Source: Thermoanaerobaculia bacterium
GTDB lineage: Bacteria; Acidobacteriota; Thermoanaerobaculia; Multivoradales; JAGPDF01
Direction of reading: 5' to 3'
Length of the DNA: 64,000 nucleotides
Assembly (NCBI GenBank): GCA_048500095.1
Contig: JASNYQ010000001.1
Span: 1,182,696-1,246,695, forward strand
Shown here in pieces: positions 31,197 through 51,210 of this stretch. How positions within the stretch are numbered: position 1 is the first letter of the stretch; each line of letters begins with the position of its first letter. Below the pieces are notes generated by a model. The model ran no database searches and was not told the origin of the DNA. It worked only from the letters and a program-made list of their open reading frames with translations. The translations under genes were made by a program, and so were the position numbers.

Positions 31197-31235
31197 ATCG
31201 CCTGGCACCTTCTTGCACCTTCTTGGCAGGGCTTC
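31197..31235. repeat. REP-like repeat copy (AGATCGCCTGGCACC) plus CACCTTCTTG x2 tandem
   Basis: Member of the dispersed family RGGTGCCAGGCGAYYTGCRGG, in reverse orientation. Confidence 0.7.
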
Positions 31236-31270
31236 GCGGCAGGTACACTGCCGCGGTCGGGAGGAGAGCC

Positions 31271-31969
31271 ATGAAGAGGATCGGCCTGATCGGCGGGATG
31301 ACGCCGGAGTCCACCATCGCGTACTACCGCGCCCTGATCCGCCTCGGCCGGAGCGTGGCGGCGGATCCCCTCGACAACCCGGTGATCCTGATCTACAGCG
31401 TCAAGCTCTCCGAGATCTTCCGGCTGCAGGAGGCCGGGCGGGACGACGAGGTGGTGGGGATCCTCGGCGACGCGTTCGATCGGCTGCGCGGCGCGGGGGC
31501 CGAGCTCGGGTCGCTGACCGCCAACACGCCGCACGTCTACTTCGACCGGTTGGCGGCGCGCGCCGGCATGCCGCTCGTCAGCATCCTGGACGCGACGTTC
31601 GAGCGGACCCGGGCGCTGGGGTGCCGCAAGGTGCTGCTGCTCGGCACGCGCACCACGATGGCCTCGCCGATGTACCCGCGGCGGATGGCGGCCGGCGACA
31701 TCCGGGTGATCGTCCCCGAAGAGGCGGAGCGGGCGTTCGTGAACCGGACGATCTACGAGGAGCTCTCGGTCGGCCTGACCACCCCGGAGGCGCGCCGGGC
31801 GTTCGTCGAGATCTGCGAGCGGCACGTGAGGGAGGACGGCGCCGACGGGGTGATCCTCGGCTGCACCGAGATTCCGCTGCTCCTCGAGCAGGGGGACGTC
31901 TCGGTGCCGATGATCGACACCACCCAGGTCCACGCCGAGGCGATCTTCGCCGCCGCGCGTGCAGGCTAG
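31271..31969 (+). CDS. aspartate/glutamate racemase family protein
   Basis: MKRIGLIGGMTPESTIAYY N-terminus and GCTEIPLLL C-terminal motif. Confidence 0.75.
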   Translation: MKRIGLIGGMTPESTIAYYRALIRLGRSVAADPLDNPVILIYSVKLSEIFRLQEAGRDDEVVGILGDAFDRLRGAGAELGSLTANTPHVYFDRLAARAGMPLVSILDATFERTRALGCRKVLLLGTRTTMASPMYPRRMAAGDIRVIVPEEAERAFVNRTIYEELSVGLTTPEARRAFVEICERHVREDGADGVILGCTEIPLLLEQGDVSVPMIDTTQVHAEAIFAAARAG

Positions 31970-32026
31970 CGGTCGCTCCGAAGGTGCCCCGAAGGGTGCC
32001 AGGCGACTTGTCGGGAGGGAGAGGCG

Positions 32027-32542
32027 ATGCCACGCTACGTCGCGTTCCTGCGCGGGGTGATGCCCACGAACCTGAAGATGGCCGACCTGCGCCGCGCCGC
32101 CGAGGAGGCCGGCGGTACGGCGGTCCGCACCCTGCTGGCGAGCGGCAACGTCGTCTTCGACGCGCCGTCGCGCTCCGAGGCCGCGGTCACGCGCGCCCTC
32201 GAGGCGGCGATCGCCGCGCGGAGCGGCCGCGCCTTCCGCGCCTTCGTGCGCCGCCAGGCCGACCTGGGGACACTCGTCGCGGCCGATCCCTTCGCCTCTC
32301 TCCCGCTCCCGGCCGCGGCGAAGCGGATCGTCACCTTCCTCGCCTCGCCCCCCGACCCGCCGCCGGCGCTCCCCGTCGAGCACGAAGGCGTCCGGGTCTT
32401 CGCGCTGAGCGGCCGCGAGGTCCTCACCGCCTACCTGCCGCACCCGCGCGGCCCCGTCTTCATGACCCTCCTCGAGCGCCTCTTCGGCACCGAGGCGACC
32501 ACCCGCACCTGGGACACCGTGCGCAAGTGCGCGGCGGGGTGA
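32027..32542 (+). CDS. DUF1697-family protein
   Basis: MPRYVAFLRGVMPTNLKMADLR N-terminal signature. Confidence 0.6.
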   Translation: MPRYVAFLRGVMPTNLKMADLRRAAEEAGGTAVRTLLASGNVVFDAPSRSEAAVTRALEAAIAARSGRAFRAFVRRQADLGTLVAADPFASLPLPAAAKRIVTFLASPPDPPPALPVEHEGVRVFALSGREVLTAYLPHPRGPVFMTLLERLFGTEATTRTWDTVRKCAAG

Positions 32543-32589
32543 GCGAGCCCCTCCGCCCTGCGCGCGAGGAGCCTGAGCGCGGGCCGCCA

Positions 32590-32690
32590 GCGGGTGCCCA
32601 GCGGGTGCCAGGCGACTTGCAGGACCCGACAGGTGCCAGGCGATTTGCAGTGACAGCGGCCCGAGACAGGTGCCAGGCGATCTGTGGCCG
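32590..32690. repeat. cluster of three direct REP-like copies (GGGTGCCAGGCGACTTGCAGG, AGGTGCCAGGCGATTTGCAG, AGGTGCCAGGCGATCTGTGG)
   Basis: Read directly. Spacers are irregular (~13-20 nt). Confidence 0.8.
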
Positions 32691-33284: not shown

Positions 33285-36200
33285 TCAGGGCGCGGCGGGC
33301 GGCTCCGTCGCCCCGAGGTCGAGCACCACCTCGCCGCCCGGCTCGAGCTGGAACGACGCGAGGGGGGCTCCGGGGAGGGGCTCGCCCCGCACGATTCCGC
33401 GCAGCGCTGGAAGCCACAGCTCTGGCGGGGTGCGGACGAGCACCCACGGCCCCGCGGCCAGGCCGTCCAGGCGGAGCCGGCCCTCGGGGAGCCCCGTCTG
33501 GAGCACGTTGACCAGACCGCCCAGGGGGAGGGTGGCCTCCGCCCCGACGAGGAAGAGCGGCCCCGTGAGCTGCGCCGCTCCGCCCAGGCCTTCGTCCGCA
33601 GTTCTCTGATCCCGAGGGCCGGTGCGCAGCACGAGCGAGCCGGTGGGCGGGAGCGCGAGGCGGTGCCGCCCGGCCCGCCCGGTGTCGACGCGGAAGCCGG
33701 CGATCGCGCGACCCGGGGCGTCGAGGAGCACGAGCGCCCGTCCCCGCGCCCCGCCACGCAGGCGGACGGTCGCGTTTCCCCTGGCATCGGTGACGAACCG
33801 GTGCCCATCGACCTCGCCGTCCGCGCGGAGGGCGAGGACCTGCCCCCCGATCGCCACGAGCGGAAGGCCCTCGGGGGAGACAAAGGCGAGGTCGAGCGGG
33901 CGCGACCTGCGCAGCACGAGGACGACCCCCGCGAGCCGTCCGTCCTCGGGCAGCTGCACGACCTGCGATTCGCTCTCCACCTCGCCCTTCTCGGCGCGCG
34001 CGGTGATCCGGTAACTCCCGCCGGCCACGCGGGTCAGGGCGAAGCTGCCGTCCTCGCGAATCGAGGCGGAAATCCCCGGATACGGCCTCTCGAACTCGCA
34101 CTCCGCCCCGGGCTCACAAGTGACCGCGAGAGCTCCGACGAAGCCCTCCCGCACCGGTTTCCCCTCCTCGTCCACCACCCGGCCCTCGATGCGCCCGCGC
34201 GGCGGCCGCACGATCACCTCCTCGTCCGGGTCCTCGAAGCGCACTTCCGGGACAACGGTGCTCTGCCCGCGGCGCGGATCGAACCACTCGACCAGGTACG
34301 TCCCCGGCCCGGGGAGCCGGATCGTGAACGAGCCGTCCGGGGCGGACGGGGTGAAGTTCGTCCCACCGCGCCTCCCCTCCACCTCGGGCCAGCTGACGCC
34401 CAGATCGAACGCGAGACTCTCCTCCTCCTCGCTCGCGCCCTCCTCCGGCTCGGCGTCGTCCACGATCCGGCCGTGGAAGAGGAGGGTCTCCGTGACCATG
34501 GGCACGGCGAACGGGAGGACGCGGGTCTCCCCCTCGGCGAGCTCGACCGTCCGGGCGCCCCCCGGCTCGAGGTGCCCGTTCCGGTCGAGCGCGAGCAGCT
34601 GGACGAGCCAACTCCCGGGTGGCAGGCCCTCGACCTCCACCGACCCGCCCGGGAGCAGCTGCACCTGGCGCCACGGCCCCTCCAGCAAGGCGTCGTCGCC
34701 GGCCAGCGTGAGATCGACGAGGAGCTCGGCCGCGCCGCTCGCCTCCCCGACCTCGGTCGCCACGATCAGCGTCGCCGCGAGCCGCTCGCGGAGCCGGCCG
34801 AGGTCGTGGCGCGCCCCGGGGGCGAGCTCGGGCACCGCGCGCGCCACCGGCGCTAGCGCCGCCGAGCGCGGCGCCACCACCGCCGCGTACGCCCCCGCAG
34901 CGAGGTCCTCGAACACCAGCCGCCCGTCCTCGCCGGTCTCGCCCCGCGCCATCGCCCGCGGGCGCTCGCCCGCGACGAGCCGCCGCAGCGTCGCGTCCAC
35001 CTGCTCCGCACCGACGAGCAGCACCGCCGCCCCCCGGACCGGCGCGCGGCCGCCAGTGTCGACGACCTGGAGCGCGATCGAGACCGCCGGCCGCAGCCGC
35101 CGCGCCGCGAGCTCGAGCCGCCCGCCGGGCGCCACCTTCGCGCCGGGCTCCACCTCCGGCGCGAAGCCCGGGAAGCGCGCCCGCAGGTCGAGGCAGCCGG
35201 CCGGCACCAGCGCCTCCGCGAGCCCCTCGGTGTCGATCGCGAGCGGCAGCTCGAAGGCGAACGCCGGCGCGCGGCCAGGGACGGCGCAGTCGCGCACCCC
35301 CCACCACCCCCCGGCGGGCCGCTTCCCGCCGGGAGGCGGCAGGAAGCGCGCCACCACCCGCCCGGCGGCGAGGAGCGGCACCTCCAGCGCCGGGCGCGCG
35401 CCCTCGTCACAGGCCGCGGGCGGCAGTGCGAAGACGAGCGACACCAGCCCTGGCGCGCGCGCGCGGAAGAGGGTCTCCGCCTCGCAGGGCACGGCGGCAC
35501 GGAGCTGGAGCGATCCCTCCTCAACCCCGGCCACGGCAGTGGACTCCACGACCTCCAGTCGCCCGCGATCGAGGCGCTCGAGCCACACCTCGCCCTCCAG
35601 CCCCAGCGCTCCCGTGACCTGAAGGAACAGCTGGGCTCCGCCGCCTTCGGGAATCGGCCCCAGCTCGGCGTCGAGCGACTCGGCCGGGAACGGCTCGACG
35701 TGCTCCTCGACGATCCGGTCGGCCTCTTCCACCTGCCCCCGCCTGCGCAGAGCCCCTGCGAGCGCACTCCAAGCCCGCACCGTCGCCGGCGCCCTTGGGC
35801 CGAGCGACGCCTTTGCATGCTCGAGAGCCTCCTCGAAGACGGTCTGAGCCCGCTCCAGGTTCTCGCCCTCCTTCTCGAACTCGGACTCCACGAAGTACTG
35901 GAAGCCGAGCAGGATCATCCCGTCCACGGCCTCCGGGCTCGTGTTTCCGTAGAAGGCCCGCCGCAGCTCGAGGCCTTCTTCGATCAGACGGCGCGACTCC
36001 GCGAGATCCTCGAAGTGGATCGCGACGCCGCTCAGCTCCTGCAACACGCGGATACGCTCCGGAGTCCGGGGAGCCTCGAGCTCGAGGAACTCCTTGGCCC
36101 GAAGCAGCAGCTCCCGGCGCTTCTCGAACGGCGCGCCGGTCTCCCGCGCCGCAACGAGGCTGGCCCGCGCGCGGAGCTGAGGATCGACTTCCGTGCTCAG

Positions 36201-36449
36201 GCACTCCTCCGCCACCAGCTGCGTCAGCTGCGGCAACCGCTCGGCGTCGCGCCCGCCGGGGTCGGGACCGCGGCCCAGTGCCGAGTCGATCTCCGCCAGC
36301 GCCCGGGCGCAGACCGCATTTCGCTCGTTCGCTGTCATCCGGGCATCAGATCCTCCGGAGGCAACGCTTCCGCTGACCGAAACGACAGAGGAAACCCATG
36401 CAATGACCAGAACAGAACGCCCTACCATGTGAGTGTCTCCCCTTCCCAT
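33285..36449 (-). CDS. large protein with N-terminal TPR-like helices and carboxypeptidase-regulatory-like (CarboxypepD_reg) beta domains
   Basis: GRVVDEEGKPVREGFV...DGSFALTRVAGGSYRI motif and repeats of it. Start is uncertain (36449 or 36428). Confidence 0.55.
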   Translation of the reverse strand: MGRGDTHMVGRSVLVIAWVSSVVSVSGSVASGGSDARMTANERNAVCARALAEIDSALGRGPDPGGRDAERLPQLTQLVAEECLSTEVDPQLRARASLVAARETGAPFEKRRELLLRAKEFLELEAPRTPERIRVLQELSGVAIHFEDLAESRRLIEEGLELRRAFYGNTSPEAVDGMILLGFQYFVESEFEKEGENLERAQTVFEEALEHAKASLGPRAPATVRAWSALAGALRRRGQVEEADRIVEEHVEPFPAESLDAELGPIPEGGGAQLFLQVTGALGLEGEVWLERLDRGRLEVVESTAVAGVEEGSLQLRAAVPCEAETLFRARAPGLVSLVFALPPAACDEGARPALEVPLLAAGRVVARFLPPPGGKRPAGGWWGVRDCAVPGRAPAFAFELPLAIDTEGLAEALVPAGCLDLRARFPGFAPEVEPGAKVAPGGRLELAARRLRPAVSIALQVVDTGGRAPVRGAAVLLVGAEQVDATLRRLVAGERPRAMARGETGEDGRLVFEDLAAGAYAAVVAPRSAALAPVARAVPELAPGARHDLGRLRERLAATLIVATEVGEASGAAELLVDLTLAGDDALLEGPWRQVQLLPGGSVEVEGLPPGSWLVQLLALDRNGHLEPGGARTVELAEGETRVLPFAVPMVTETLLFHGRIVDDAEPEEGASEEEESLAFDLGVSWPEVEGRRGGTNFTPSAPDGSFTIRLPGPGTYLVEWFDPRRGQSTVVPEVRFEDPDEEVIVRPPRGRIEGRVVDEEGKPVREGFVGALAVTCEPGAECEFERPYPGISASIREDGSFALTRVAGGSYRITARAEKGEVESESQVVQLPEDGRLAGVVLVLRRSRPLDLAFVSPEGLPLVAIGGQVLALRADGEVDGHRFVTDARGNATVRLRGGARGRALVLLDAPGRAIAGFRVDTGRAGRHRLALPPTGSLVLRTGPRDQRTADEGLGGAAQLTGPLFLVGAEATLPLGGLVNVLQTGLPEGRLRLDGLAAGPWVLVRTPPELWLPALRGIVRGEPLPGAPLASFQLEPGGEVVLDLGATEPPAAP

Positions 36450-36802
36450 CAGTAGAAAGGCATCGGATCGCTGCAGGCGGCCTCTACGGCGCTGGTCAGC
36501 TGGCCTGCAGTGGGTGGATCTCCAGGACCGGTGCTTGGGCTGGTGTCCTCCAATTGACCCGCCACGTGGAGCCCCTCATGAATTAGGAGCGTTGCAGCGA
36601 AGGACGTCGCGAAACCCGCGAACCGGTCGCAGAGGAAGATCACACGATCATGGTTGCAGCAGGTGGTCCAGGCCCCCGTGGTGGGATTCTCACACGGCTT
36701 GACGTTGCTGCCGTGGGTAACACCCTCGCCGCGCCGGAAGACAACATACCCATTCAAGATCTCAACGCCGCTCATGCCAAGCGGCGAGTTGTCGAACAGC
36801 AT
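36449..36802 (-). CDS. small HExxH-motif protein (putative metallopeptidase-like, 117 aa)
   Basis: Sits at the low-coordinate end of a longer spurious ORF. Lower local GC. LLIHEGLHVAG motif. Several Cys. Confidence 0.35.
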   Translation of the reverse strand: MLFDNSPLGMSGVEILNGYVVFRRGEGVTHGSNVKPCENPTTGAWTTCCNHDRVIFLCDRFAGFATSFAATLLIHEGLHVAGQLEDTSPSTGPGDPPTAGQLTSAVEAACSDPMPFY

Positions 36803-36820
36803 CGAGCTGCTCCGAGGTGC

Positions 36821-36900
36821 CATGCGACTTGCGACGGCATCGCGCTGCTCTTCAGGTGTTCTTCGGGTGCTCTTCAGGTGCCATGCGATCTGCGCCAGAT
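36821..36900. repeat. two REP-like copies (AGGTGCCATGCGACTTGCG, AGGTGCCATGCGATCTGCG) with GTGYTCTTCRG tandem between
   Basis: Read directly. Forward orientation, immediately upstream of the HUH transposase-like gene. Confidence 0.75.
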
Positions 36901-36928
36901 TCAAGGGGGCGATGGCGTCTTCGAAGGC

Positions 36929-37858
36929 ATGCCACGCCGAATCCGCTTCGTGCCCCCCGGAGGCGCGCTCGTCGAGGTGACCTGCCGGACTCTCCAAGCC
37001 CGCCTCCTCCTGCGCCCCTCGCCCCTCCTTCGCGACATCACCCTCGGCGTTCTCGGCCGCGCCCAGCGGCAGACCGGGGTTGCGATCCACGCCTTCGTCT
37101 TCCTCTCCACCCACCACCACCTCCTCGTCTCCGTCTCGGACGCCGCCCAGCTTGCTAGGTTCGTCGGCTACCTCAACTCCAACCTCGCCCGCGAGCTCGG
37201 CCGGATGCACGCCTGTCGGGAGAAGTTCTGGGGCCGCCGCTATCAGGCCATCCTGGTCAGCGACGAGGAGGCCTCCCAGGTCGAGCGCCTCCTCTACCTC
37301 GCCCGCCACGGCTGCAAGGAGGGCTTGGTCTCCGACCCTCTGGACTGGCCCGGAGCCACCAGCTGGCAGGCGATGCTGGACGGAAGGCCGCTCGAGGGCA
37401 CCTGGTTCGATCGCACGGCGGAGAGCTTGGCGACGCGGAAGGGGGTCGAGTTCGGGGCCCGGGACTTCGCCAGCGCGGAGACCGTGGTGCTCGCACCGCT
37501 CCCGGCCTGGGCGCACCTCGAGCCCGAAGTCCAGCGGGAGCGGCTGCGGGAGCTCCTCGATCTCGCCCGGGCCGAGGCCGCGGCGATGCGCGAGGAGACC
37601 GGGCGCGAGCCCCTGGGCCGCGAAGCCGTGACACGGCAGGACCCTCATGGATCGCCGCTGCGGAGGAAGAAAGGTCCGGCGCCGCTGGTGCATGCGGCGA
37701 GCCGCGAGGTGCGAAGAGCTTACCGGGAGGCGTACCGTCTCTTCACGGCCGCCTACCACCGCGCGGCCGAGGCCCTGCGGGCCGGGATCGCCACCGTCGT
37801 CTTTCCCGAGGGTTGCTTCCCTCCACCTGGGCCGTTCCAGCGGCCGGCAACGGCCTGA
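36929..37858 (+). CDS. IS200/RayT-like HUH (Y1) transposase homologue with ~170-aa C-terminal extension
   Basis: IHAFVFLSTHHHLLV (HUH). FWGRRYQAILV...LLYLARHG resembles the catalytic-Tyr region of TnpA_REP/COG1943. The first conserved YHV is degenerate (VEV). Confidence 0.5.
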   Translation: MPRRIRFVPPGGALVEVTCRTLQARLLLRPSPLLRDITLGVLGRAQRQTGVAIHAFVFLSTHHHLLVSVSDAAQLARFVGYLNSNLARELGRMHACREKFWGRRYQAILVSDEEASQVERLLYLARHGCKEGLVSDPLDWPGATSWQAMLDGRPLEGTWFDRTAESLATRKGVEFGARDFASAETVVLAPLPAWAHLEPEVQRERLRELLDLARAEAAAMREETGREPLGREAVTRQDPHGSPLRRKKGPAPLVHAASREVRRAYREAYRLFTAAYHRAAEALRAGIATVVFPEGCFPPPGPFQRPATA

Positions 37859-38050
37859 GAGCAGCTTCTACCGAACCGACTTCCTCCCATCCACCAGGGG
37901 CGACTTGCGCCCGAACGGTAACGCGCACAAGCAACGACACTCGGTAGACCGATCTGACGCGGCACGCTTTGGCCCCAATCTGGCCCTGTCTCCCGCATGT
38001 CCGGCCGCGGCGCAGGCTTCGGGGTCAACGCGCGACATGCGCAACCGAGC

Positions 38051-38170
38051 CAGGCCTGGAAATCGCATGGCACCCTTTCGGCACCCTCTCGGCACCCTCT
38101 CGGCGCCGGCTATCCGGACGTGTCGGAAGTCGCCTGGCACCCTCTCGGCGCACCCTGCTCGCGCCCGACT
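38051..38170. repeat. REP-like copies in reverse orientation (AATCGCATGGCACCC, AAGTCGCCTGGCACCC) with GGCACCCTYTC x3 tandem
   Basis: Read directly. Inverted relative to the 36821..36900 copies, so the pair flanks the transposase-like gene. Confidence 0.75.
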
Positions 38171-38265
38171 CCCACAACCACGAGCCCCGGCTCGTCACGG
38201 GAAACCACCGTCCCTTGACAGGAACGCCTTCAATGAGTGGCACCCTCTCCAGCAGGCGAGGATTT

Positions 38266-38556
38266 CTATCGTCTTAAGGCATTTCCAAGGCGAGAAAGCA
38301 GCCACGCCACGAAGCCGAGCGCCGCGCCAACCACCGAGGCCGCCAGGCCGCTGTACAAGACAGCTGCCGGGATCCACATCCATCTTGGGCCAGGCGGCGC
38401 CTCACTCCAGCAGAACAAGAACCACAAAAAGAATCCAGCGATAAAGCCAAGCGCGGGCACGACCCTGGGCAAAGACACCGGTTGCCGACGAAGCACCAAC
38501 CAGGCCAGTAGACTCGGAAGTCCAAGGGCCATCACCAGCAGAGAGAAGTCTCGCAT
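38266..38556 (-). CDS. small 3-TM membrane protein, candidate RHS-toxin immunity protein
   Basis: ATG overlaps the RHS stop (TGATG). 96 aa, low GC, hydrophobic. Confidence 0.5.
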   Translation of the reverse strand: MRDFSLLVMALGLPSLLAWLVLRRQPVSLPRVVPALGFIAGFFLWFLFCWSEAPPGPRWMWIPAAVLYSGLAASVVGAALGFVAWLLSRLGNALRR

Positions 38557-40518
38557 CAGAAGTCCACCCCTCTACGCAACCGTCTTATGAGTTGCCTCAT
38601 GAAGAACCGAGTCAGGCGCTCCATCTGCTTATCGCGCTCGGAGCAGGGATCATAAGTGTCCGTCCAGGTCGCTTGGGCTTCATAGTCGAAACCCCAGTGG
38701 CTGAAAAACTCTAGACGAAGGGCGTGGCCGCCCAAGAACCACTTCCGACCAGCGTGCGAGAACGTGTCCTGCAGCTCATGGAGGTGCTCACCAAATGCTC
38801 GAAGATCTGCCGCTTCTATCGCATCATAGAGGTCGCGTTCGACATCCACCCTTTCGCGGAAATGCCGCCAGCCCTGAAATGGGTTGAAGGGGTGCTTCCA
38901 GCCGTGGTCCATTCCTTCATTGTAGGAAGCAATCATGTCGGCCTGGAATGGCGAGAAGTCTTCCTGAAGCGCCCAAGTGTGCGTCTTGTGAAGATGAAGC
39001 TCGGTTCTATAGAGGCCTGATGGGTCCTTGGAATTGACTGGATCGTTGGCGGAATACTCAAACAGACCAGCTGATCCGCCTTCGAACCCAATCGGATCCT
39101 TCGCCGTCCACCTCCCCACCTCCGGGTCGTAGTCCCGCGCCCCGAACCGCACGAGCCCGGTCTGGGGGTCGTAGAGCCCTCCAGCGAACCCGAACGGCTG
39201 CCAGCCCGGATTCGAGTCGTAGGTGATCCGGCCCCAGGCGTCGTAGTCCAGCCGCTGCACGACCGCCCCGCTGGTGGCGTCCACCACCAGCCGCACGCTG
39301 CCCAGGTGGTCGGTGAGCATCCGGTAGGTCGTGCCGCCCGCTACCAGGTAGTCCGGTACGTGCCCCTGCGTCCCGTACACGAACGTCTTCGTGACCGCCC
39401 CCGTCCCGTCCGTCTCCGCCGCCGGCGCGAGGCCCCCGGCGTAGAGCCAGCCCTGCGTCAGCACCCCGTCGACCCGCTTGCCGATCCGCCGGCCCGAGGC
39501 GTCCACCAGGTACTCGATCGCGATCCCGTCTGGCAACTCCACCCCGAGCAGCGACCCGCGGATGTCGTAGGCGTACGAGGTGGTCTCCGGCCCCGCGCTC
39601 TCGGTCAGCCGCTCGCCGTTTGCCGTATAGGTGAAGGCCTTGGCGCCCGCCGTGAGCTGCCGGTCCTGCGCGTCGTAGGTCGCCACCCCCGAGCCCCAGA
39701 AGTCGCTCCAGCTCGTGCGGTTCCCGTTGCCGTCGTAGCCGTAGCTCGCGACCGGCACCCCGTCTCTCCGCACCTCCGTCAGCCACCCCCGCTCCGGGTG
39801 GTAGCCATACTCCCACACCGCGGTCACCCCGCCGATCGTCTCCGTCCGCCGCGTGATCCGGCCCCCCGCATCCCGGTCCAGGTCGTAGGCGTACGCCACC
39901 GACCCGCCGATCCGCGCCGTGAAGACGTCCAGCTCCCCGAACCCCGTCCGCGTCCGCTCCTCCGAGGTCACCCCCAGCGCCGTCGTCGCGAGCCACCCGC
40001 TCGCCGCCTCCCGGCCGAGGTCGAGCTCCCCGGCCCGCACCAGCAGGCCGTCGGGGTCGTACTCGTACGCCACAGGAGCGCCCCCCGCCACCGTCCGCCC
40101 GGCCAGCCGCAGGTCCGCGTCGTAGCTGAAGCCGATCGCGCCCGCGACCGGGCCCGACGTGGCGATCGAGGTGAGAAGCGGCCCCTCGTACCCGAAGGTG
40201 CTCTGGAAGCCGCCCGGCGCCGCGACCGTGCTCACCCGGCCGCTCGCCGCGTCGTAGGAGAGGTCCACCACCCCGGTCGGCAGCGTCACGAAGTCGAGAC
40301 GCCCGCTCGGCTCGTAGCTCGGGAGCAGCTCCTGACCGTCCGGCCGCGTCACCGCCGTCAGCTGCCCGTCGGCGTTGTAGGCATACCTCGTGTGCCGCGG
40401 CGCGAAGCCCGCCTCCGGAGGGGTGTACGTGTCCACCAGGTCGGCGGGTGTGTAGCCGAAGTCGTGCGGTGGACGCGTCGGTGGGGTGATCGAGGCGGTT
40501 CGAAAATCGCCCAGCACC
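38556..40518 (-). CDS. RHS/YD-repeat protein, 5'-truncated, with RHS core (DPxGL) and unassigned C-terminal toxin domain
   Basis: YD repeats (YAYDxxGrL) begin near aa 165 of the ORF. Core motif ARDYDPEVGRWTAKDPIGFEGGSAGLFEYSANDPVNSKDPSGL. The last ~150 aa are low GC and His-rich. The ORF's first ~160 aa are Arg/Ser junk, and GTG at 40518 is the likely start. Confidence 0.7.
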
Positions 40519-40569
40519 CTATCGGCGCCCTCTCGGTTCGGCGCAGTTAGGTCCTCTCTCGGGCGCCCT

Positions 40570-41467: not shown

Positions 41468-41980
41468 CTACTCAGGTCGGCTGCCGACCTCTCGCCCAGC
41501 ACTCTCCAGCCACTCGTTCGTCCTTCCCTTTCCCGCGTATCCCCTGAGGATCATCGGATCCGCATCAGCGGTCCGGACGGCAACGAGCGTCGGAAAGCCC
41601 TGGACGCTGAAGCGGCGCTGCAGCTCCTCAACCTCCTTCGCGTTTTGCCCCTCCTCGAACTCGCGATCGACTACGCGAACCGCGACAAACCTGGCATTGA
41701 CCAACTCAGAGGTCTTCCCATTTCGGAACACCTCCCTCTCGAGCTGCGCGCAGGGTCCACACCAGTCCGCCGTGAACCAGAAGAGAAGCGGCTTCCCCGA
41801 ATCCGCCTGCCCCTCCATAGCAGCGACTGGCTCCTGCCACCTGACAAGGTCCGGGGCTCTCGACGGGTTTCGGTACTCGAGAACCCCACTCATCACACGT
41901 CCAAACAGAAGCAGGCCGGCCAGCACCAGCATCCATTTCGGGACCGCCCGGCTCGAACCCGCGACCTCAGCGCTGCGCAT
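41468..41980 (-). CDS. membrane-anchored thioredoxin-like thiol:disulfide oxidoreductase
   Basis: WCGPC active site. N-terminal TM anchor. Confidence 0.7.
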   Translation of the reverse strand: MRSAEVAGSSRAVPKWMLVLAGLLLFGRVMSGVLEYRNPSRAPDLVRWQEPVAAMEGQADSGKPLLFWFTADWCGPCAQLEREVFRNGKTSELVNARFVAVRVVDREFEEGQNAKEVEELQRRFSVQGFPTLVAVRTADADPMILRGYAGKGRTNEWLESAGREVGSRPE

Positions 41981-42686
41981 AGGACAGCTCGCGTCGGTTG
42001 ATCAGGCAAATGGCACCCACAAGGCAGAGGGTGATGGTAGAGAAAAAGGACAGCACCGAATAGAGCGAGAGAGAGCCTACGCCCAGTGTCTCGCCAAGAT
42101 CGAGCATCGGGCAGAAGAAGCGCACTCCCTCCTCCCCCATGCGCGACCCAACCGGCCAACGATGTGACGCACCAAGGCCACGCAGCAATGAACACCCCGC
42201 CCAGGCAACGATCCACAGCACCCAATCACCCTGCTCGCTTACGACAGTTGAAACAAGCACAAGCACGGCAGCCACTGCAATCGCGATCAGCGCTCCATTG
42301 CCCAGCGCGAGGGCGAGCGCTCCGGCGGATGGCTGTGACCCAACCGTCATGAGGACGACCGCGCTCGTCAACACCCCGACGCTGTACAGCGCAGCGGCAA
42401 GGACTCCTGTCCCGAGCCACCTCCCCAGGACATAGCTGGCGCGGCGCACTGGTCGGGTGAAGATCAGGAGGAGAGCTCCTGTCCGGGCGTCCTGACCGAT
42501 TACGCCCGCACCGACGACAAGAACGAAGAGAGCACCGAACCCACCGTGCTGAAGGCGCGCCAGACCATGCTCTGGCGCGATCAGAACCCAGCCCCACTGG
42601 GCCACAATCACCGCGAGTGCCAGTGCCATGCGAAAGGGCGCGACCAGGCGCTCGCGAACGAAGGCGCGTGCGAATGTGGCGGTCAT
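41967..42686 (-). CDS. ABC-2 type transporter permease
   Basis: 6 TM helices. Overlaps the ATPase stop. Confidence 0.6.
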   Translation of the reverse strand: MTATFARAFVRERLVAPFRMALALAVIVAQWGWVLIAPEHGLARLQHGGFGALFVLVVGAGVIGQDARTGALLLIFTRPVRRASYVLGRWLGTGVLAAALYSVGVLTSAVVLMTVGSQPSAGALALALGNGALIAIAVAAVLVLVSTVVSEQGDWVLWIVAWAGCSLLRGLGASHRWPVGSRMGEEGVRFFCPMLDLGETLGVGSLSLYSVLSFFSTITLCLVGAICLINRRELSYAQR

Positions 42687-43690
42687 GCCTTCTCTCTGTC
42701 GGATCGGCTCTCGTCAAACAACCACTCTAGCCGGGGGGCCTCCGCCTGCGCCGCCAAGATCCGCACTCCAGCCTCGTGAAGGGCGGCGAGCAAGGCAGCA
42801 CGGTCGTTCGCCGCCTCGACAAGGAAGCGCGCACCAGCTGAGTCGCTGCTTTCTAAACGGACATTCACTCTGGACGCGATCTCGCTGAGGCGCTCCGGCG
42901 CCGGCCGCTCGGAATCGGACGAGTGTGACCACTCAACTCGGATTACTCCGGGCCCTTCCGAACGCAATGCGGTGTCGAAGAGCGACTCGAGGCGGCCACT
43001 TCGAAGAAATGCTACCCGATCGCAGATCCGTTCAACTTCCTCGAGGCGATGCGAGTTCATGACCAGTGTGGTGCCCCTGGCCTTCAGATGGAGCAGACAC
43101 TCGCGCATTGCCATGACGCCAGCGGGGTCCACGCCCGATGTGAATTCGTCGAGGAACAGGATGTCAGGATCGGGAAGGAGCGCCTGCGCGATCAAGAGGC
43201 GCTGTTGCATACCCTTCGAGAAGTGCGCCACTCTTCTCCTTACGGCTGCTTCGCTCAATCCTGCAATCCCAATGACTCTCGTGATGTTTGCGGCCACTTC
43301 TTCCCGCGGCAGGCCAGAGAGCTTGTGGTGCCACTCCAGGAAGCGCCACCCTGTCGTCCAGCGATCGAACTGGAAGCGCTCGGGGACGTAGCCGACCCGC
43401 CGCAGCACACGAAGGTCACTCGGGGCAAAGCCGCCAATTCGGACCTCGCCTTCGTCCGGACGAAGCAACCCGAGCAGGCAGCCCATGAGGGTTGTCTTTC
43501 CGGCGCCGTTCGCACCAATGACACCCATTGCTTCTCCGGGACGAACCGTCAACGTCACGCCGTCGAGCGCACGGCGCCGAGGATGTCCGAAACTCTTCGA
43601 GAGGCCGCTGGCAGTAACCCCCATTGGCTCGGGCCGCCGACCGCCGTCCACTACGACAGGGTCGGGATTCGTCGCTTGATGAACAGACAT
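42683..43690 (-). CDS. ABC transporter ATP-binding protein
   Basis: GANGAGKTT Walker A, FSKGMQQRL signature, ILFLDEFTSGVD Walker B. Start chosen at MSVHQ. Confidence 0.8.
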   Translation of the reverse strand: MSVHQATNPDPVVVDGGRRPEPMGVTASGLSKSFGHPRRRALDGVTLTVRPGEAMGVIGANGAGKTTLMGCLLGLLRPDEGEVRIGGFAPSDLRVLRRVGYVPERFQFDRWTTGWRFLEWHHKLSGLPREEVAANITRVIGIAGLSEAAVRRRVAHFSKGMQQRLLIAQALLPDPDILFLDEFTSGVDPAGVMAMRECLLHLKARGTTLVMNSHRLEEVERICDRVAFLRSGRLESLFDTALRSEGPGVIRVEWSHSSDSERPAPERLSEIASRVNVRLESSDSAGARFLVEAANDRAALLAALHEAGVRILAAQAEAPRLEWLFDESRSDREKA

Positions 43691-43817
43691 TATGGTTAGG
43701 AGAGAAGGTCCAGGGATCCCATCATCAGACCACCCCCCTCGCACCGACCTCCCTCGGCGCGAGGGGGGTTCGCCCGCAGAGCACGCCCTCAGGGGCCATG
43801 CCGATCTCTACGGCATC

Positions 43818-44456
43818 CTAGTAGCAACGTCCCTGGCCCGGCCCACCCCCGTTACAGGAGGTACCGCAGTCAAGCCACCCCCCACCTCCGAACACACAAC
43901 CCCAGTAGCAGGCGGCGTAGGCGCCGCACTCCCAGATGTTCTCGGGGTTCGGGCCCACCGAATCAACGGAATAGTGTACCAAGGCTAGCTGTACTTGCAG
44001 GATGGACACCATCTCTTCGCTCGTCGTGAGGCCGACAAGACCCGGAAGCACGCTCGATCGCAGCTGAGTCAACAGCGTCCCGTTCATCTGACTGAAGGCT
44101 CTCTCAACTACGTGCGGTACCGCCTGGCTGCCTCCCGCGAGTTCGAGAACGAGGATCGGCGGGAATCTCGAAGTCATAAGACCATGCTGGTAGCTTACTG
44201 AGATCGAAGTTGCGCCGGGATCATCGCTCGGGACAACCAGGAACTCGATCACCTCGTCGCCGAGTCGGTAGGCTGAGAAGTAGTGCTCCTCGCTGCCAAC
44301 CGTGATCGTCGTCGAAAACTCGACACCGTTGTACTCTCCGAAGAACTGCTTCGCCGACGCCTGGCATTTCCCCTGAGCCAACGCCTCCGCGGCCCCCCAG
44401 AAGAGGAGACAAGACACCAGAGCACACATGACAACCGAACCAGTGAGTCTCTTCAT
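43818..44456 (-). CDS. secreted protein with Cys/Gly-rich C-terminal tail
   Basis: Sec signal peptide. ~50% GC. C-terminus WECGAYAACYWGCVFGGGGWLDCGTSCNGGGPGQGRCY with 7 Cys. Confidence 0.5.
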   Translation of the reverse strand: MKRLTGSVVMCALVSCLLFWGAAEALAQGKCQASAKQFFGEYNGVEFSTTITVGSEEHYFSAYRLGDEVIEFLVVPSDDPGATSISVSYQHGLMTSRFPPILVLELAGGSQAVPHVVERAFSQMNGTLLTQLRSSVLPGLVGLTTSEEMVSILQVQLALVHYSVDSVGPNPENIWECGAYAACYWGCVFGGGGWLDCGTSCNGGGPGQGRCY

Positions 44457-44824
44457 AGTTCATCCTCCGTTCATGCTGCGGTTAAGAGCTGAGCCGGGTT
44501 GAGAGGCGCGGATCTCAGCTCGTGATTGAGTGGAGCAAGCTGGCGGTTCTTCTCGACTTCATCGGCACTCGTTCCAGTCTGAGCAGAGAGACCAACCACT
44601 CGGACGACAGGCCCCCTTGGTCCTGCAGAGTCTCGGTTTCGCCCAGAAGAAGGCACCCGAATCTGTCGCAAGCGCTTCGCTCAGCAGGCTCACTTCGATC
44701 TCCTCTTCTGTGATCCATTCCACTTGCAAGGTTCAACCCGGCTGCTATCGTCCATGTCATCGAGGACTCACTGGGTCTACTTACTAGACCCGCGAAATGG
44801 CCGGAGGGTGGACAGGGGGGAGGC

Positions 44825-45382
44825 ATGTGCCAGAACGGATCGGCTTCGAGCGAGCAGCCCTTCGTCGAAGGGCGCGAGGACGCGGAGGAACTCGCGCGAC
44901 TCCTTGCAGAGGTGCAGCCGGCGCTCCTGCGCCTCGGAGCGCGGAGGGGCCTCGGCCGGGAGGACTGCGAGGACGCGCTGCAGGAGACGCTGATGCGTTT
45001 CCATCAGGCGCAGGGGAGGGTGGCCAACCCGGTGGCTTGGCTGCACACCGTGATGCACCGGGAGTGCCTGCGTCTTCTCGGCCGCCGGCAGTTCGAACGG
45101 GAGGAGACGGCCGAGCGGGTGCTCGAGATGCGCGCGCGCGTGGACAGCGGCTTCGCGCAGCGGCTCCACCGCGTCGACCTCGGCCGGCTCCTCGGCCGCC
45201 TCCGCGCGCGCGAGCGCCGCCTGTTGCTGCTCTTCTACTTCGCGGGGGTGGAGGCGCGGGAGGTGGCGCGGCGGATCGGGTGCCGCACCTCCAGCCTCAA
45301 GCGGCTGCTCGCGCGGGCTCGCGAGGCGGCGCGGTCGGCGCTGCGCGAGACGGGATCGGTCCGCTCGCCGACCGAGGAGTGA
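44825..45382 (+). CDS. ECF-family RNA polymerase sigma factor
   Basis: Region 2 (EDALQETLMRFHQA) and a region 4 HTH (LLLLFYFAGVEAREVARRIGCRTSSLKRLLARAR). Confidence 0.75.
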   Translation: MCQNGSASSEQPFVEGREDAEELARLLAEVQPALLRLGARRGLGREDCEDALQETLMRFHQAQGRVANPVAWLHTVMHRECLRLLGRRQFEREETAERVLEMRARVDSGFAQRLHRVDLGRLLGRLRARERRLLLLFYFAGVEAREVARRIGCRTSSLKRLLARAREAARSALRETGSVRSPTEE

Positions 45383-45497
45383 GGTCCGGCGCCGCCAGAG
45401 GCTGGCCGCCAGGGGCGGCGGCCGCTACGTGCTGCGGCGTTCGTAGCGGCCGGACCCGTGCCGGCCAGCCTTCAGGGAGAACCGCGAGAGGGCCGGT

Positions 45498-47168
<1,671 letters not shown>

Positions 47169-47402
47169 GACGATCCCTGCCCTTTCAGAACGGCACGCTA
47201 GGCCGCCCGGTTTCCCCGCGCACGTGCCCCCCGCCGGGGTTCGCGGGCGCCCCGGCTCCGCGGGGCCCGGCGCTCCGCGGCCGTCCCGCGGGGAGGCTCC
47301 CCGCCCACGCCCCCGGATCCCGCGGGCCCCTCCGCTGACGCGCCACCCGCTGCGCCGGCGCGCCCGCGAACCCCGCCCCCGGCGAACACCCGCTCCACCG
47401 CC

Positions 47403-49007
47403 TCAGCTCGCGGGGCGAGTCTGATCGAGACGCGCCAGCGCGCGGTCGATCCGCGCGAGCACCCGCTCGCGGCCGAGAATGGAAAGGAGGTCGAAGAGGC
47501 CGAAGCCGACCGCCTTGCCGGAGACGGCCACGCGCACCGCGTGGACGATGGCGCCGAGGCCGAGACCGCGCGCGGCGACGAAGTCGCCGCAGAGCGCCTC
47601 GAGCTCAGGCGCCGCGAAGCCCGGGGCGGCGGCGAGCGCGGCGCGCAGCTCGGCGAGGAGCGCCGGCGCTCCGGCCGCATGGCGCAGCCGCTTGTCGAAC
47701 GCCTTCTCGTCGCAGGCGAGCGCCTCGTCGGCGACGAAGAGCTCCTCGTAGTCGAGGATGTCGCCGGCCACCTTGAGCCGCTCGGCCGCCGCCTCCACCA
47801 CCGCGCGCACGGTCGCGCGCTCCGCATCGGACGGCGGCGAGGCGATCCAGCCGGCGCGCTCGAGGAACGGGAGCGCGAGCGCGGTGCGCTCCTCGGCGGG
47901 GAGCGCCTGCATGTAGCGCTCCTGGAACGAGAGGAGCTTGGCCGGGTCGAAGCTCGCCGGGGCGCGGTTCACGCGGTCGAGGGTGAAGACGGCGATCCGC
48001 TCCTCGGCGGCGAGGATCTCGGTCTTGTCGTCGAGCGACCAGCCGAGCAGCAGCAGGTAGTTCAGGATCGCGTCCGGCAGGAAGCCGCTCTCGCGGTAGA
48101 AGTCGACGATCACCGGGTTGAAGGTGTCGGCCGCGACATGGTGGCCGAGCCGCTCGGCGATCCGCCGCCCGCGCTCGAAGAGGCCGGCGAACTCCGGGTT
48201 CTTCAGGTACTTGTCGAGCTTGCGCTTGGAGAGCTTGACGCGGCTGCCGGGCTCGGCGACCACCGGCAGGTGCGCGAGCACCGGCGGCTCGGCGCCGAGC
48301 GCGCGCCAGATGAAGACCTGCCGCGGGGTGTTGGAGAGGTGCTCCTCGGCGCGGATCACGTGGCTGATCCGCATCTCGATGTCGTCGACCACGCTCGCGA
48401 GGTGGTAGAGGCAGCTGCCGTCGGCGCGCTGGACGACGTGGTCGGCCTCGGCCGCCCAGTCGGTCACCACCTCGCCCCGCACCAGGTCGTCGAGCCGGCA
48501 CTGGCCCTCGCGCGGCATCTTCAGGCGCACGACGAAGCCGCGCCCCTCGGCCTCGAAGCGCGCCCGGTCGGCCTCCGTCTCGGCCGCCCAGCGGCGGCTC
48601 GCCACGTACGGCTCCTTCGCCGCCTCGGCCACCCCCCGCTCGGCCTGGATCTCCTCGGGGCGCGCGTAGTCGCGGTAGGCGAAGCCCCCGGCCAGCAGCC
48701 GCTCGACCGCCGCCTGGTAGCGCGGCAGGCGCTCGGACTGGTAGTAGGGGCCGTACTCGCCGCCGACGTCCGGCCCCTCGTCCCAGTCGAGGCCGAGCCA
48801 GCGGAAGCCGTCGAGGATCGGGGCGAGGGCCTCGGCGACGTTGCGCTGGGCGTCGGTGTCGTCGACCCGCAGCACGAAGCGCCCGCCGTGGCGGCGGGCG
48901 AAGAGCCAGTTGAAGAGGGCGGTGCGGACACCGCCGATGTGCAGGTAGCCGGTCGGCGAGGGGGCGAACCGGACCCGCACCGGGGCGGCCGGAGTGGGAT
49001 CGCTCAT
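47403..49007 (-). CDS. gltX: glutamyl-tRNA synthetase
   Basis: [18 protein letters not shown] and KLSKR motifs. Confidence 0.9.
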
Positions 49008-49167
49008 CGCCGGCGATCCTATCGGCTGGCCGCGCGCTCCGTCGAACCGGGGTCGAACCCGGCGGTCGAACCCGCGGCAGGGGCGGGGCTATACTCTCTC
49101 CAGAGCACGCTCGACGGCGCCCGTCGCCGGCCCATCCCGACCCGCACCGCGCCCGGAGGAGGCCGCC

Positions 49168-50088
49168 ATGACCGACCAGCCGCCCGTCCCCGCCACCCCC
49201 CGCGTCTTCGTCGCGGGCACCGACTTCTCTCCCGCCGCCGCCACCGCCCAGCGCTGGGCCGAGCACCTGGCGCGGGCGCGGGGCGCGGAGCTCCACCTGG
49301 TCCACGCGCTGCGCATCTACGGGCCGCCGACCGACTTCCTGGTCTCGCCGCCCGACTACACCGAGGAGCTCCAGTCGCGCGCCGTGGCCCGGCTCGACGA
49401 GGCCGTGGACCGGGCGCGCGCGGGGGGCGCCGACGCGCGGGCGGCGTTCCGGCTCGGCGATCCGCACCGCGCGCTGCTCGAGGCGGCCGAGGAGCTCGGC
49501 GCCGACCTCCTGGTGGTCGGCACCCGCGGATCGAGCGGGCTCGAGCACTTCCTGCTCGGCTCGACCGCCGAGCGGGTGATCGAGCGCGCCGGCTGCCCGG
49601 TGCTCACCGTCCACCCCGACCAGGAGCCGCCGGCCGGGCCGGTCGCCCACCTGCTCGTGCCCACGGACTTCTCCGACGACGCCGAGATGGCGGTGGCGGC
49701 GGCGCTGGAGCTCGTCGCCCCGGGCGGCCGCGAGCTGCGCCTGACGCTCCTCCACGCCTACTACCTGCCGATCGAGTACACCGCCTACGGCACGATCCCC
49801 ACCTCGCCGCGCTACCTCGAGGACGTCGCCGGGGCGGCGGAGGGGCGCTTGAAGGAGGTGGCCGAGCGGCTCGCGCGGCCCGGGCTCACGGTCGAGACGC
49901 GGGCCACCGAGGGGTTCCCGCCGGAGGCGGTGCTGACGGCGGCCCGGGAGCTCGGCGTCGACCTGATCGCGATGGGGACGCGCGGCCGCACCGGGCTCGA
50001 GCACCTCCTCCTCGGCTCGACCGCCGAGCGCGTGGTGCAGCGCGCCCCCTGCCCGGTGCTCACCGTCCGCCGCCCGCGCGGCGACTGA
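49168..50088 (+). CDS. tandem universal stress protein (UspA) domain protein
   Basis: Two UspA modules each ending VVGTRG..GLEH.LLGSTAERV.. GGAGGA RBS. Confidence 0.8.
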   Translation: MTDQPPVPATPRVFVAGTDFSPAAATAQRWAEHLARARGAELHLVHALRIYGPPTDFLVSPPDYTEELQSRAVARLDEAVDRARAGGADARAAFRLGDPHRALLEAAEELGADLLVVGTRGSSGLEHFLLGSTAERVIERAGCPVLTVHPDQEPPAGPVAHLLVPTDFSDDAEMAVAAALELVAPGGRELRLTLLHAYYLPIEYTAYGTIPTSPRYLEDVAGAAEGRLKEVAERLARPGLTVETRATEGFPPEAVLTAARELGVDLIAMGTRGRTGLEHLLLGSTAERVVQRAPCPVLTVRRPRGD

Positions 50089-50103
50089 GAGACGCGCCCC
50101 GGC

Positions 50104-50760
50104 TCAGCCGGGGAGGCCCAGGCCGGCCGGACAGGCGACCCCGGTGCCGCCGAGGCCGCAGTAGCCGCCGGGGTTCTTCGCCAGGTACTGCTGGTGGTAC
50201 GCCTCGGCGTAGTAGAACGGAAGCGCCGGGGCCCCGATCTCGGTGGTGACCGGCCCGAAGCCGGCCGCCGCGAGCGCCTCGGCGTACGCCGCGCGCGACG
50301 CCTCGGCGACAGCCCGCTGCGCCTCGTCGAAGCAGTAGACCGCCGAGCGGTACTGCGTGCCGACGTCGTTGCCCTGGCGCATCCCCTGGGTCGGGTCGTG
50401 GCTCTCCCAGAAGAGGCGGAGCAGCCGCTCGTAGGTCACCTTCCCGGGATCGAAGACCACGAGGACGGCCTCGGCGTGCCCCGTCCGGCCGCTGCAGACC
50501 TCCTCGTAGGTGGGGTTCGGGGTGAAGCCGCCCGCGTAGCCCACCGCGGTCGAGTAGACCCCCGGCTCCTGCCAGAGCTTCCGCTCCGCCCCCCAGAAGC
50601 AGCCGAGCGCGAAGAGCGCCCGCGCCATCCCCTCCGGGAACGGCGGCACGATCCGCGCCCCGGTCACGAAGTGCGTCTCCGGCACCGGCATCGCCTCGGC
50701 CCGCCCCGGCAGCGCCCGGTCGGGCGCCACCATCTCGACCTTCCCCCACGCCAGCTTCAT
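50104..50760 (-). CDS. msrA: peptide methionine sulfoxide reductase MsrA
   Basis: GCFWG active site. ATG at 50760 within a longer ORF. Confidence 0.85.
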
Positions 50761-50884
50761 CCCCGTCGCCTCCTCGCCGGGCTCTCGCGGCCCATTTACT
50801 CTACGCAAAGCCCGGGCTGGGGGGATGGGCAGGAAGGTGGGCCATCTCCGCGTAGCGGCCGCCGCCCCTGGCGGCCGGCCTTGC

Positions 50885-51210
50885 GAACGCAGGCTGCCAG
50901 GTGCCAGGCGACTTGTAGGCGATCTGCCCCGGCCACCAGTAGGGGCGCGTCGCGACGCGCCCCCACAGCAGACGAGACGGCGAAGACAGGGGAGATCTGC
51001 ACCCGGCGGCAGGGTGCCGGCAGGGTGCCAGGCGACTTGCGGGCCGCGGCAGGGTGGCGACTTGTGGCAGCCACGTGCCGGGCGACTCGGGCGATCTACC
51101 CTGGCCACCGCAGGGGTGCGTCGCGACGCGCCCCTACAGCAGGCAAAACGGCGAAGACGGGGCGCAACGTGCCGCAAGGTGCCAGGCGACTTGCGGGCGC
51201 TGCCGGGGCG
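50885..51210. repeat. cluster of at least five REP-like copies (e.g. CAGGTGCCAGGCGACTTGTAGG, CAGGGTGCCAGGCGACTTGCGGG, AAGGTGCCAGGCGACTTGCGGG)
   Basis: Read directly. Intergenic, between msrA and the glycosyltransferase. Confidence 0.8.

Follow-up and report, generated by a model that had tools for sequence, protein, structure and literature searches.

How RayT-like enzymes spread short repeats in bacterial genomes is an unresolved question, and two described systems come closest to the locus analysed here. In REPtrons, a Y1/HUH gene (one catalytic tyrosine; histidine-hydrophobic-histidine) is bracketed by inverted copies of a scattered intergenic repeat, the repetitive extragenic palindrome (REP) (PMC2817692, PMC3116915, PMC3479197). 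In TIRtrons, or TIRYTs (Di Nocera, De Gregorio and Rocco 2013, PMC3733652), the inverted repeats on either side of a RayT-like Y1 gene are not REPs. These may form dispersed families of singles, dimers and clusters, with examples in Acidobacteria, and many but not all TIRtrons carry a GGGGWSAS box in the terminal inverted repeat (TIR); Quentin et al. (2018) treat TIRYTs as subclass 2.1 of TnpAY1 (PMC6006769). This TIR-associated branch has seen almost no follow-up in the literature since it was named. Here, we describe a Y1 element and its dispersed end motif in a stretch of 64,000 nucleotides (nt) from a Thermoanaerobaculia bacterium, hereafter the window (assembly GCA_048500095.1, contig JASNYQ010000001.1, positions 1,182,696 to 1,246,695 of the forward strand). 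The element is a unit of ~1.3 kb, spanning about 36815–38156, whose only gene encodes a RayT-like protein of 309 amino acids (aa). It shares with REPtrons the inverted bracketing of the gene by a scattered repeat, and with TIRtrons (PMC3733652) inverted repeats unrelated to GTAG-tagged REPs with family members elsewhere in the genome; a TIRtron-like Y1 element with its terminal repeats is the best description of the unit and the orphan copies around it. Our results suggest that the motif is probably the terminal inverted repeat of this unit and that the stray copies are orphan ends, multiplied by enzymatic nicking and terminal re-copying.

A dispersed motif at the inverted ends of a Y1/HUH gene

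The motif is strongly over-represented. The 21-mer RGGTGCCAGGCGAYYTGCRGG has 14 matches in the whole window at up to three mismatches, compared with 0.09 expected, and none of 100 shuffles reaches that number; the core GGTGCCAKGCGAY is present in 14 exact copies, and an nhmmer profile of the copies finds 14 full copies at E ≤ 5.5e-5, the rest of the window scoring at E ≥ 1.1. The repeat family that an earlier note on this DNA had described is thus real, down to the seven clusters and their orientations; its counts of at least 15 copies in total and at least five at 50.9–51.2 kb hold when degenerate copies are included, the full copies numbering 14 and three. All 14 are confined to the stretch from 31.2 to 51.2 kb, where they make up seven intergenic clusters, and the other 44 kb of the window, outside 31–51 kb, has none. 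When the distribution of non-coding-like sequence is taken into account, all seven clusters fall in this interval with a probability of ~0.01, which argues weakly for local clustering. The copies are at 31197 (minus strand), 31995, 32604, 32632 and 32669 (plus) in clusters 1 to 3, at 36816 and 36877 (plus, left) and 38062 and 38129 (minus, right) at the two ends of the Y1 unit, and at 41296 and 41407 (minus) and 50900, 51024 and 51178 (plus) in clusters 6 and 7.

Two further properties that the note had reported are confirmed. The copies are intergenic in 14 of 14 cases, judged by codon-position GC, Pfam matches and homologue alignments, with the caveat that one gene-caller open reading frame (ORF; 40570–41418, minus) runs over the 41.3–41.4 kb cluster, the same gene being 74 codons shorter as called in another sample. 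Their GC content is 62–67%, below the 74% of the surrounding DNA. Each unit begins NNNNN-GGTGCC and ends YYTGCRGG around a sharply defined core of 13 nt; the 5-nt prefix extends every copy on its 5' side and differs between loci. In many cases, prefix plus GGTG(CC) is repeated in partial form one to three times in tandem ahead of the copy, an arrangement here termed a stutter, and every cluster in the window runs head-to-tail in a single orientation. The clusters and the Y1 unit are laid out as follows.

31174–31255, minus: cluster 1, 82 bp that some strains have and others lack, with a 6-bp direct repeat GCCGCG at its flanks; it contains motif copy 31190–31210 and the stutter AAGAAGGTGC twice at 31205–31224
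31980–32014, plus: cluster 2, the stutter GAAGGTGCCCC and then motif copy 31994–32014
32589–32688, plus: cluster 3, the stutter AGCGGGTGCCC and then three head-to-tail copies (32603–32623, 32631–32651 and 32668–32688; unit lengths 28 and 37 nt)
36815–36896, plus: left end of the Y1 unit, with outer copy 36815–36835, stutter 36848–36875 and inner copy 36876–36896
36929–37858, plus: Y1 gene, 309-aa HUH/Y1 (RayT-like) protein
38055–38075, minus: right end of the Y1 unit, inner copy, with an outward stutter GGCACCCTYTC three times, to 38101
38122–38142, minus: outer copy at the right end of the Y1 unit, with a separate stutter reaching 38156
41289–41309, minus: cluster 6a, a single copy that does not vary among the samples with a contig extending to it
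41400–41456, minus: cluster 6b, copy 41400–41420 with a four-unit stutter TAAGAAGGTG(C)
50899–51197, plus: cluster 7, full copies 50899–50919, 51023–51043 and 51177–51197, plus stutters
50917–50927, 51047–51071 and 51075–51090, plus: degenerate copies of cluster 7

The copy in cluster 2 ends 12 nt ahead of the DUF1697 start codon. Cluster 7 is in part a tandem duplication of a composite unit of ~130 bp that also holds a GTAG-tagged palindrome. As a separate observation, the Asp/Glu racemase gene (31271–31969) has a motif copy on each side, both turned with their outer (prefix) sides towards it.

The gene at the centre of this layout lies in ORF 36650–37858, which carries Pfam Y1_Tnp (E 4e-7), its homologues placing the true start at the ATG at 36929. 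Two plus-strand copies lie to its left and two minus-strand copies to its right, with stutters pointing outward on both sides, and no replication or helicase gene is found within the ~1.3-kb unit. The inner left copy is a T variant, GGTGCCATGCGA, starting 52 nt before the ATG. In the protein, the HUH motif is H62-H63-H64 and Y123 is the candidate catalytic tyrosine, H62, H64 and Y123 being invariant across 33 aligned homologous sequences; the family consensus reads SNH[YF]HLL, followed by a tryptophan motif FWGRRY and a tyrosine motif Y-L-L-x-[HQ]-G-x-KEGLV, in which the Q or H four residues after the tyrosine presumably occupies the position of IS608 Q131 (metal binding). The nearest model, NCBIfam NF047646 (REP_Tyr_transpos), scores 40.6 bits, below its cut-off of 80, and the NCBIfam IS200 model scores 16 bits against a cut-off of 55. 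An AlphaFold (AF2) model (pLDDT 84, pTM 0.84) has as its best Foldseek match in the PDB the Escherichia coli RayT bound to a REP hairpin (4er8; E 6.6e-5, target TM 0.62), followed by the ISDra2 and IS608 TnpA transposases. With the His-hydrophobic-His motif, the tyrosine and a predicted RayT/TnpA fold, the protein is placed by sequence and model in the HUH/Y1 nuclease superfamily, with predicted catalysis. The C-terminal extension (residues 140–309) matches no Pfam family, and residues about 150–309 have no Foldseek match among solved PDB structures. The protein represents a distinct, large family: there are more than 1,200 close matches, mostly named Thermoanaerobaculia, and 532 clusters at 50% identity (E ≤ 1e-30), nearly all of these 305–320 aa long. 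Exact-sequence look-up returned no record for the window Y1 protein, the Usp gene or the 223-aa gene adjoining cluster 7.

The same arrangement recurs at other loci. Plus copies to the left and minus copies to the right of a Y1 gene are also found at L117/L118, L119, L120/L121 and L219 in Thermoanaerobaculia, and the genomic contexts of these elements differ from locus to locus. Specifically, one 4.09-Mb contig of the Thermoanaerobaculia metagenome-assembled genome (MAG) GCA_027493395.1 carries three paralogues, each 81–88% identical to the window protein, one between ruvA and ruvB (L117/L118), one next to an RHS gene and one next to a Fer4 gene; at each of them, plus copies end about 50 nt before the ATG and minus copies lie downstream. 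Homology between elements begins exactly at the proximal left copy and continues through a conserved leader, GGTGCCAGGCGAYTTGCGACAGAT...CGTCT...GGCATG. In five loci with unrelated flanks, the left copy stands at a fixed distance (~52 nt) from the ATG. At the right end, distance and sequence vary between paralogues. The divergent locus L219 (protein 58% identical) has a variant left end GAGGTGCCATCCGAATCGCGCCAGATT preceded by CCCTGTGAGGTGCC, repeated at 13–15 nt, and an inverted right end GAGGTGCCA.

The left-end core GTGCCAGGCG has potential pairing partners in CGTCT and in GGCAT(G) at the start codon; this holds for each of the five elements, over the following regions.

36876–36934 of the window: GTGCCAGGCG pairing region of the window element
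L117, L119 and L120, at 9930–10006: GTGCCAGGCG pairing region
L219, 10018–10094: GTGCCAGGCG pairing region

By analogy with IS200, such pairing could occlude translation initiation; it has no covariation support because all columns are invariant.

Results from other sequence sets, and from the racemase homologues described below, point to a lineage-restricted motif. In a 17-mer scan of the species-genome collection, the real members among the matches listed are L042 and L028, from one Acidobacteria MAG, the rest being single chance matches; viral contigs likewise contain single chance matches only, and 372 kb of unrelated high-GC metagenome loci hold the motif at chance level. A metagenome search with the DUF1697 neighbour, aimed at orthologous empty sites, returned only non-syntenic homologues 51–63% identical, with chance-level motif counts. 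The motif sequence was not found in the literature searched.

Stutters, arrays and gene fragments share one outer edge

About 40% of the copies have tandem partial copies directly outward of them, such as TAAGAAGGTG three times before 41407 and GAGAGGGTGCC twice before 38062. Pooling the window with related loci gives 37 copies, and in 15 of them the copy's own 9-mer of prefix plus GGTG recurs within 35 nt upstream (at most one mismatch), compared with a mean of 2.7 and a maximum of 9 in 2,000 trials in which flanks were permuted among copies. Stutter periods range from 8 to 15 nt, with 11 the commonest (nine cases) and 10 the next (five cases), and the junctions fall in different registers (GGTG, GGTGC, GGTGCC and GGTGCCCC). 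Spacers are identical within one stutter and different from locus to locus, which argues for duplication rather than selection on sites. The presence of a stutter in the divergent L219 element indicates a family trait and not an accident of one locus. Stutters also travel with the unit, since copies 31197 (cluster 1) and 41407 (cluster 6b) have 38 nt in common, stutter (AAGAA-GGTGC) included. For orphan copies in the window, the match to the right-end type extends deeper into the unit than the match to the left-end type, reaching up to 39 nt in copy 41407 and 19–22 nt in several others. Set against a miniature inverted-repeat transposable element, which has its own terminal inverted repeats and a target-site duplication, each orphan unit has a single end, and the 6-bp direct repeat at the 82-bp segment of cluster 1 could stem from an insertion or from a deletion.

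Longer series of the same kind are found elsewhere. At L042, an unrelated locus of the Acidobacteria MAG, at least nine units of 19–41 nt, each starting (CC)AAGGTGCC, stand in the same orientation within one 250-nt intergenic gap. Beside this array, the last unit is followed (L042 3128–3200) by a perfect TATAAT seven nt before the ATG of a signal-peptide protein, which suggests a leaderless transcript beginning just after the array. At L117, a full unit is followed head-to-tail by two right-terminal fragments, one of 610 nt (84% identical, encoding residues 183–309) and one of 272 nt (98.9% identical to its neighbour), each joined precisely to the outer edge of the right end before it, with CTCGG or CGG microhomology at the junction. 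The near-identical L118 is without the 272-nt fragment and has instead two 24-nt end units side by side. Stutters, array units and the two gene fragments thus all end at the outer edge of the end motif, the only difference being their inward extent: 10 nt in stutters, 19–41 nt in array units, and 272 and 610 nt in the fragments.

Some of these changes are recent, two of them being strain-level indels, of 82 bp in the species of the window and of 240 bp in a relative. The window is 100% identical to contigs of GCA_023384635.1 and of a Logan assembly, and both of these short-read contigs stop within the Y1 gene, an indication that the genome contains more copies of this kind and an illustration of how the motif repeats break short-read assemblies. 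Strains represented by L124/L125, 99.5–99.9% identical, are without exactly 82 bp (31174–31255, comprising copy 31190–31210 and its stutter), at a junction marked by the 6-bp direct repeat GCCGCG. Racemase homologues 89% and 75% identical, in two other genomes, have unrelated gene neighbourhoods and no motif in about 38 kb. No differences at the 41.3–41.4 kb cluster are seen among the samples with contigs that extend to it, and the thioredoxin gene with its downstream gap (about 41148–41488) is identical in samples from several studies.

Comparison with described systems

With REPs and bacterial interspersed mosaic elements (BIMEs), the motif shares a unit size of 20–40 nt, repetition and extragenic position. 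The REP/BIME reading given in the earlier note stands as far as dispersal, intergenic location and a RayT-like gene with inverted flanking copies are concerned, and falls on the palindrome, the tag and the alternation of orientation. Specifically, no hairpins appear: all ten motif-bearing segments folded as single-strand DNA give z values from -1.7 to +1.2 and no common stem, whereas a control GTAG element in the window folds at z -4.15. Paired orientations are absent as well, all clusters being head-to-tail with no close inverted pairs, and hairpins and REPIN-like pairing were both rejected. The unit has no GTAG or CGTC tag at either end, and the clusters of the window and of L042 keep a single orientation, never alternating, with no inverted doublets. 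Because it has no palindrome, no GTAG tag and no alternating orientation, the motif fails the REP/BIME definition; the label was partly right, in spirit through the tie to a RayT-like gene, and wrong in kind. The unit resembles REPtrons further in that its catalytic domain is predicted to fold most like E. coli RayT. It departs from them in its lack of palindrome, GTAG tag and inverted doublets, in its head-to-tail arrays and in having several diverged paralogues per genome, and its protein departs from RayT in the bit score given above and in the absence of the Y---NP signature (PMC6006769).

TIRtrons are closer, with clear differences. The published Acidobacteria TIRYTs (PMC3733652) are about 170–200 aa long with HVH and Y..NP motifs, compared with 309 aa, NH[YF]H and Y-L-x-x-[HQ]-G in the window family, and the sequences published there are unlike the window family throughout; the C-terminal ~170 aa of the latter has neither a Pfam family nor a PDB match. 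A GGGG run is present ~25 nt before the ATG, but its forms GGGGGCGA, GGGGTTGG, GGGGATCG and GGGGATCT misfit the WSAS part of the TIRtron box. The tyrosine motif fits none of the class signatures of Quentin et al. exactly, members with Q fitting Y---Q (PMC6006769). Outward stutters and nested terminal fragments are not described in the sections of the TIRtron/TIRYT literature covered here (PMC3733652, PMC6006769).

The family shares with the IS200/IS605 elements (IS608, ISDra2) a catalytic core of HUH and a single tyrosine. Those elements differ in having subterminal hairpins, no inverted repeats, a transposase of ~130–150 aa and near-identical copies; the window family has ends that are inverted repeats and, on the one contig of GCA_027493395.1, three paralogues that are each 81–88% identical to the window protein. 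Among rolling-circle HUH systems, the 11-bp repeats of pMV158 RepB, geminivirus iterons and the one-ended events of IS91 and Helitrons provide cases of direct-repeat sites or multiple ends. The window family resembles them in its short direct repeats at about one helical turn beside a presumed nick site, and in having several same-orientation ends together with truncated copies that share one terminus. Their enzymes, by contrast, are of the Y2 or Rep type, working with an origin hairpin, and we regard the resemblance as a lead by analogy.

A nick-and-recopy model and its alternatives

Under the model that we favour, the Y1 enzyme would recognise the GGTGCC...GCGA core and nick the DNA, or impose a site-specific block, immediately beyond the 5-nt prefix, where the end has its outer edge. 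Occasional re-priming of the free 3' end at an upstream microhomology, nearer or farther back along the template, would allow a terminal segment, varying in length, to be copied once more as far as that edge and joined to the flank. A single process could in this way generate the 8–15-nt stutters, the 19–41-nt head-to-tail arrays and the nested right-end fragments of 272 and 610 nt. Orphan copies would be right-end-like derivatives seeded in intergenic DNA and then multiplied locally, their dispersal representing mobilisation in trans, as others have suggested for REPs and for TIR families (PMC3733652, PMC3116915). If the copies act as protein-binding sites, as the earlier note suggested they could, the protein most likely to bind them is the element's own putative enzyme. 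The graded series of terminal fragments predicts the position of the cut, and the locus is tractable, with a large conserved protein family and a confident structural model, a 13-nt core and polymorphisms between near-identical strains. If nick-and-recopy is true, it explains how hairpin-free, head-to-tail arrays arise in intergenic DNA, and the outward stutter at one edge becomes a signature that can be searched for in other genomes.

Several observations weigh against this model. Known Y1 enzymes (IS608, ISDra2 and E. coli RayT) need a DNA hairpin, and no conserved hairpin is detectable in the orphan copies within the range of fold scores reported above. The window protein deviates at three near-invariant positions (N61T, Y63H, which makes its HUH motif HHH, and W96C), and this Y1 copy may on that account be inactive or decaying; three of the four repeats that flank it are of the rare T variant. 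The 82-bp indel is not a simple terminal fragment, because it has 25 nt beyond the stutter and a direct repeat at its flanks, and insertion and microhomology deletion are equally possible origins. In addition, a few motif matches fall inside called genes of a related genome (L120 294–314, 12895–12910, 13175–13197 and 16328–16345), the best of them (294–314) being a 19-nt match that codes for AQIAWHP in a xanthine-dehydrogenase-like large subunit and may be an in-frame insertion or a coincidence; across 63 kb of a related genome, 18 of 22 profile matches are intergenic.

In a more specific version of the model, the 309-aa family would be an unclassified Y1/HUH branch acting on a non-hairpin end, perhaps with duplex GGTGC units about one helical turn apart being read by the C-terminal domain, and an outer-edge nick would lead to templated terminal re-copying that leaves 'end fossils' of 10–600 nt. 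We put this forward tentatively, as a reading that may well prove wrong. If true, it would constitute a mode of repeat growth distinct from REP/REPIN transposition and from the peel-and-paste mechanism of IS200/IS605.

Three other explanations can be envisioned. The best placed of them, in our view unlikely, is that the motif was already present as an intergenic repeat of the host, such as one bound by a nucleoid or regulatory protein, and that the Y1 unit preferentially inserts into it. IS1397 and some IS110-family elements do insert into REPs and BIMEs, some copies occupy promoter-proximal gaps (such as the one before DUF1697), GGTGC units spaced by about one helical turn (10–11 nt) are what binding to one face of a duplex would call for, and the right-end distance and sequence differ among paralogues. 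Conversely, an insertion target does not account for a left copy held ~52 nt from the ATG, with a conserved leader, in five loci with unrelated flanks, for nested gene fragments that each carry their own end, or for stutter spacers whose identity within a stutter and difference between loci indicate duplication and not site selection. The orientation of copies to neighbouring genes is also inconsistent, one cluster lying between convergent genes, and no sigma-70-type promoter or terminator consensus coincides with any copy.

Nor is it likely that arrays and stutters arose by replication slippage or unequal exchange with no enzyme involved, the Y1 ends being merely repeat-prone. The varying junction registers, the microhomology at junctions and the plain ~130-bp tandem duplication in cluster 7 are of the sort that slippage produces, but it leaves unexplained why the outer edge of the end motif is always one endpoint of fragments from 10 to 610 nt, why the pattern recurs with a different prefix in L219, and how the motif was dispersed to at least seven loci. 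Slightly less probable still is a classical REP/BIME family mobilised by RayT, its units being short palindromes outside genes with a hairpin role in DNA or RNA: the intergenic, dispersed and clustered copies, the inverted copies around a RayT-like gene and the structural match to E. coli RayT speak for it, but in its strict sense it is refuted by the failed palindrome test, tag, orientation and protein signature also fail to fit, and the genuine GTAG palindromes of the window belong to a different sequence family.

Further candidates were considered and rejected. A phage or plasmid origin was set aside on the chance-level matches in viral contigs and on the lack of any homologue of the Y1 protein on plasmids. 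The motif matches no Rfam family. Sigma-54 and sigma-70 promoters misfit in spacing when inspected by eye, and a consensus scan found nothing. An integron attC site or a CRISPR-like array was dismissed because the spacing is irregular and the units have no internal inverted-repeat structure. The flanks of the whole Y1 unit are pyrimidine-rich on both sides, but no duplication is consistent across loci, and a target-site duplication around the unit was rejected.

Surroundings of the element

The window, about 74% G+C overall, contains a lower-GC island of 60–65% that encompasses the Y1 unit.

36000–45000: low-GC island with the Y1 unit, an RHS/YD-repeat protein (38556–40988, minus), a thioredoxin-like protein, an ABC-2 transporter pair and an extracytoplasmic function (ECF) sigma factor

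The window also has two GTAG-tagged families, and no canonical RayT is present in the window. The first, GTAGGGGCGCGTCGCGACGCGCCCC, is a perfect 22-nt palindrome with a GTAG tag in two copies (50939–50966 and 51110–51137), a classical GTAG-type REP interleaved with the motif in the ~130-bp tandemly duplicated composite unit of cluster 7. The second, CGTAGCGGCCGCCGCCCCTGGCGGCC, lies at 45399–45470 and 50851–50881; at 45.4 kb, where the ECF-sigma and GlnRS genes converge, a pair of inverted units between them makes a strong hairpin (z -4.15), and the copy at 50.85 kb is 31 nt long and 97% complementary. Further along, two class-I E/Q-type tRNA synthetase genes stand side by side at 45498–49007 (minus) and, judging by their Pfam domains, look like GlnRS and GluRS. 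Ahead of the repeat-bearing interval, two adjacent giant ORFs (11500–22769; 1,863 and 1,893 aa) represent a tandem duplication of 5.66 kb with 71–92% nucleotide identity, and each has paired 84-nt dockerin-like repeats near its 3' end.

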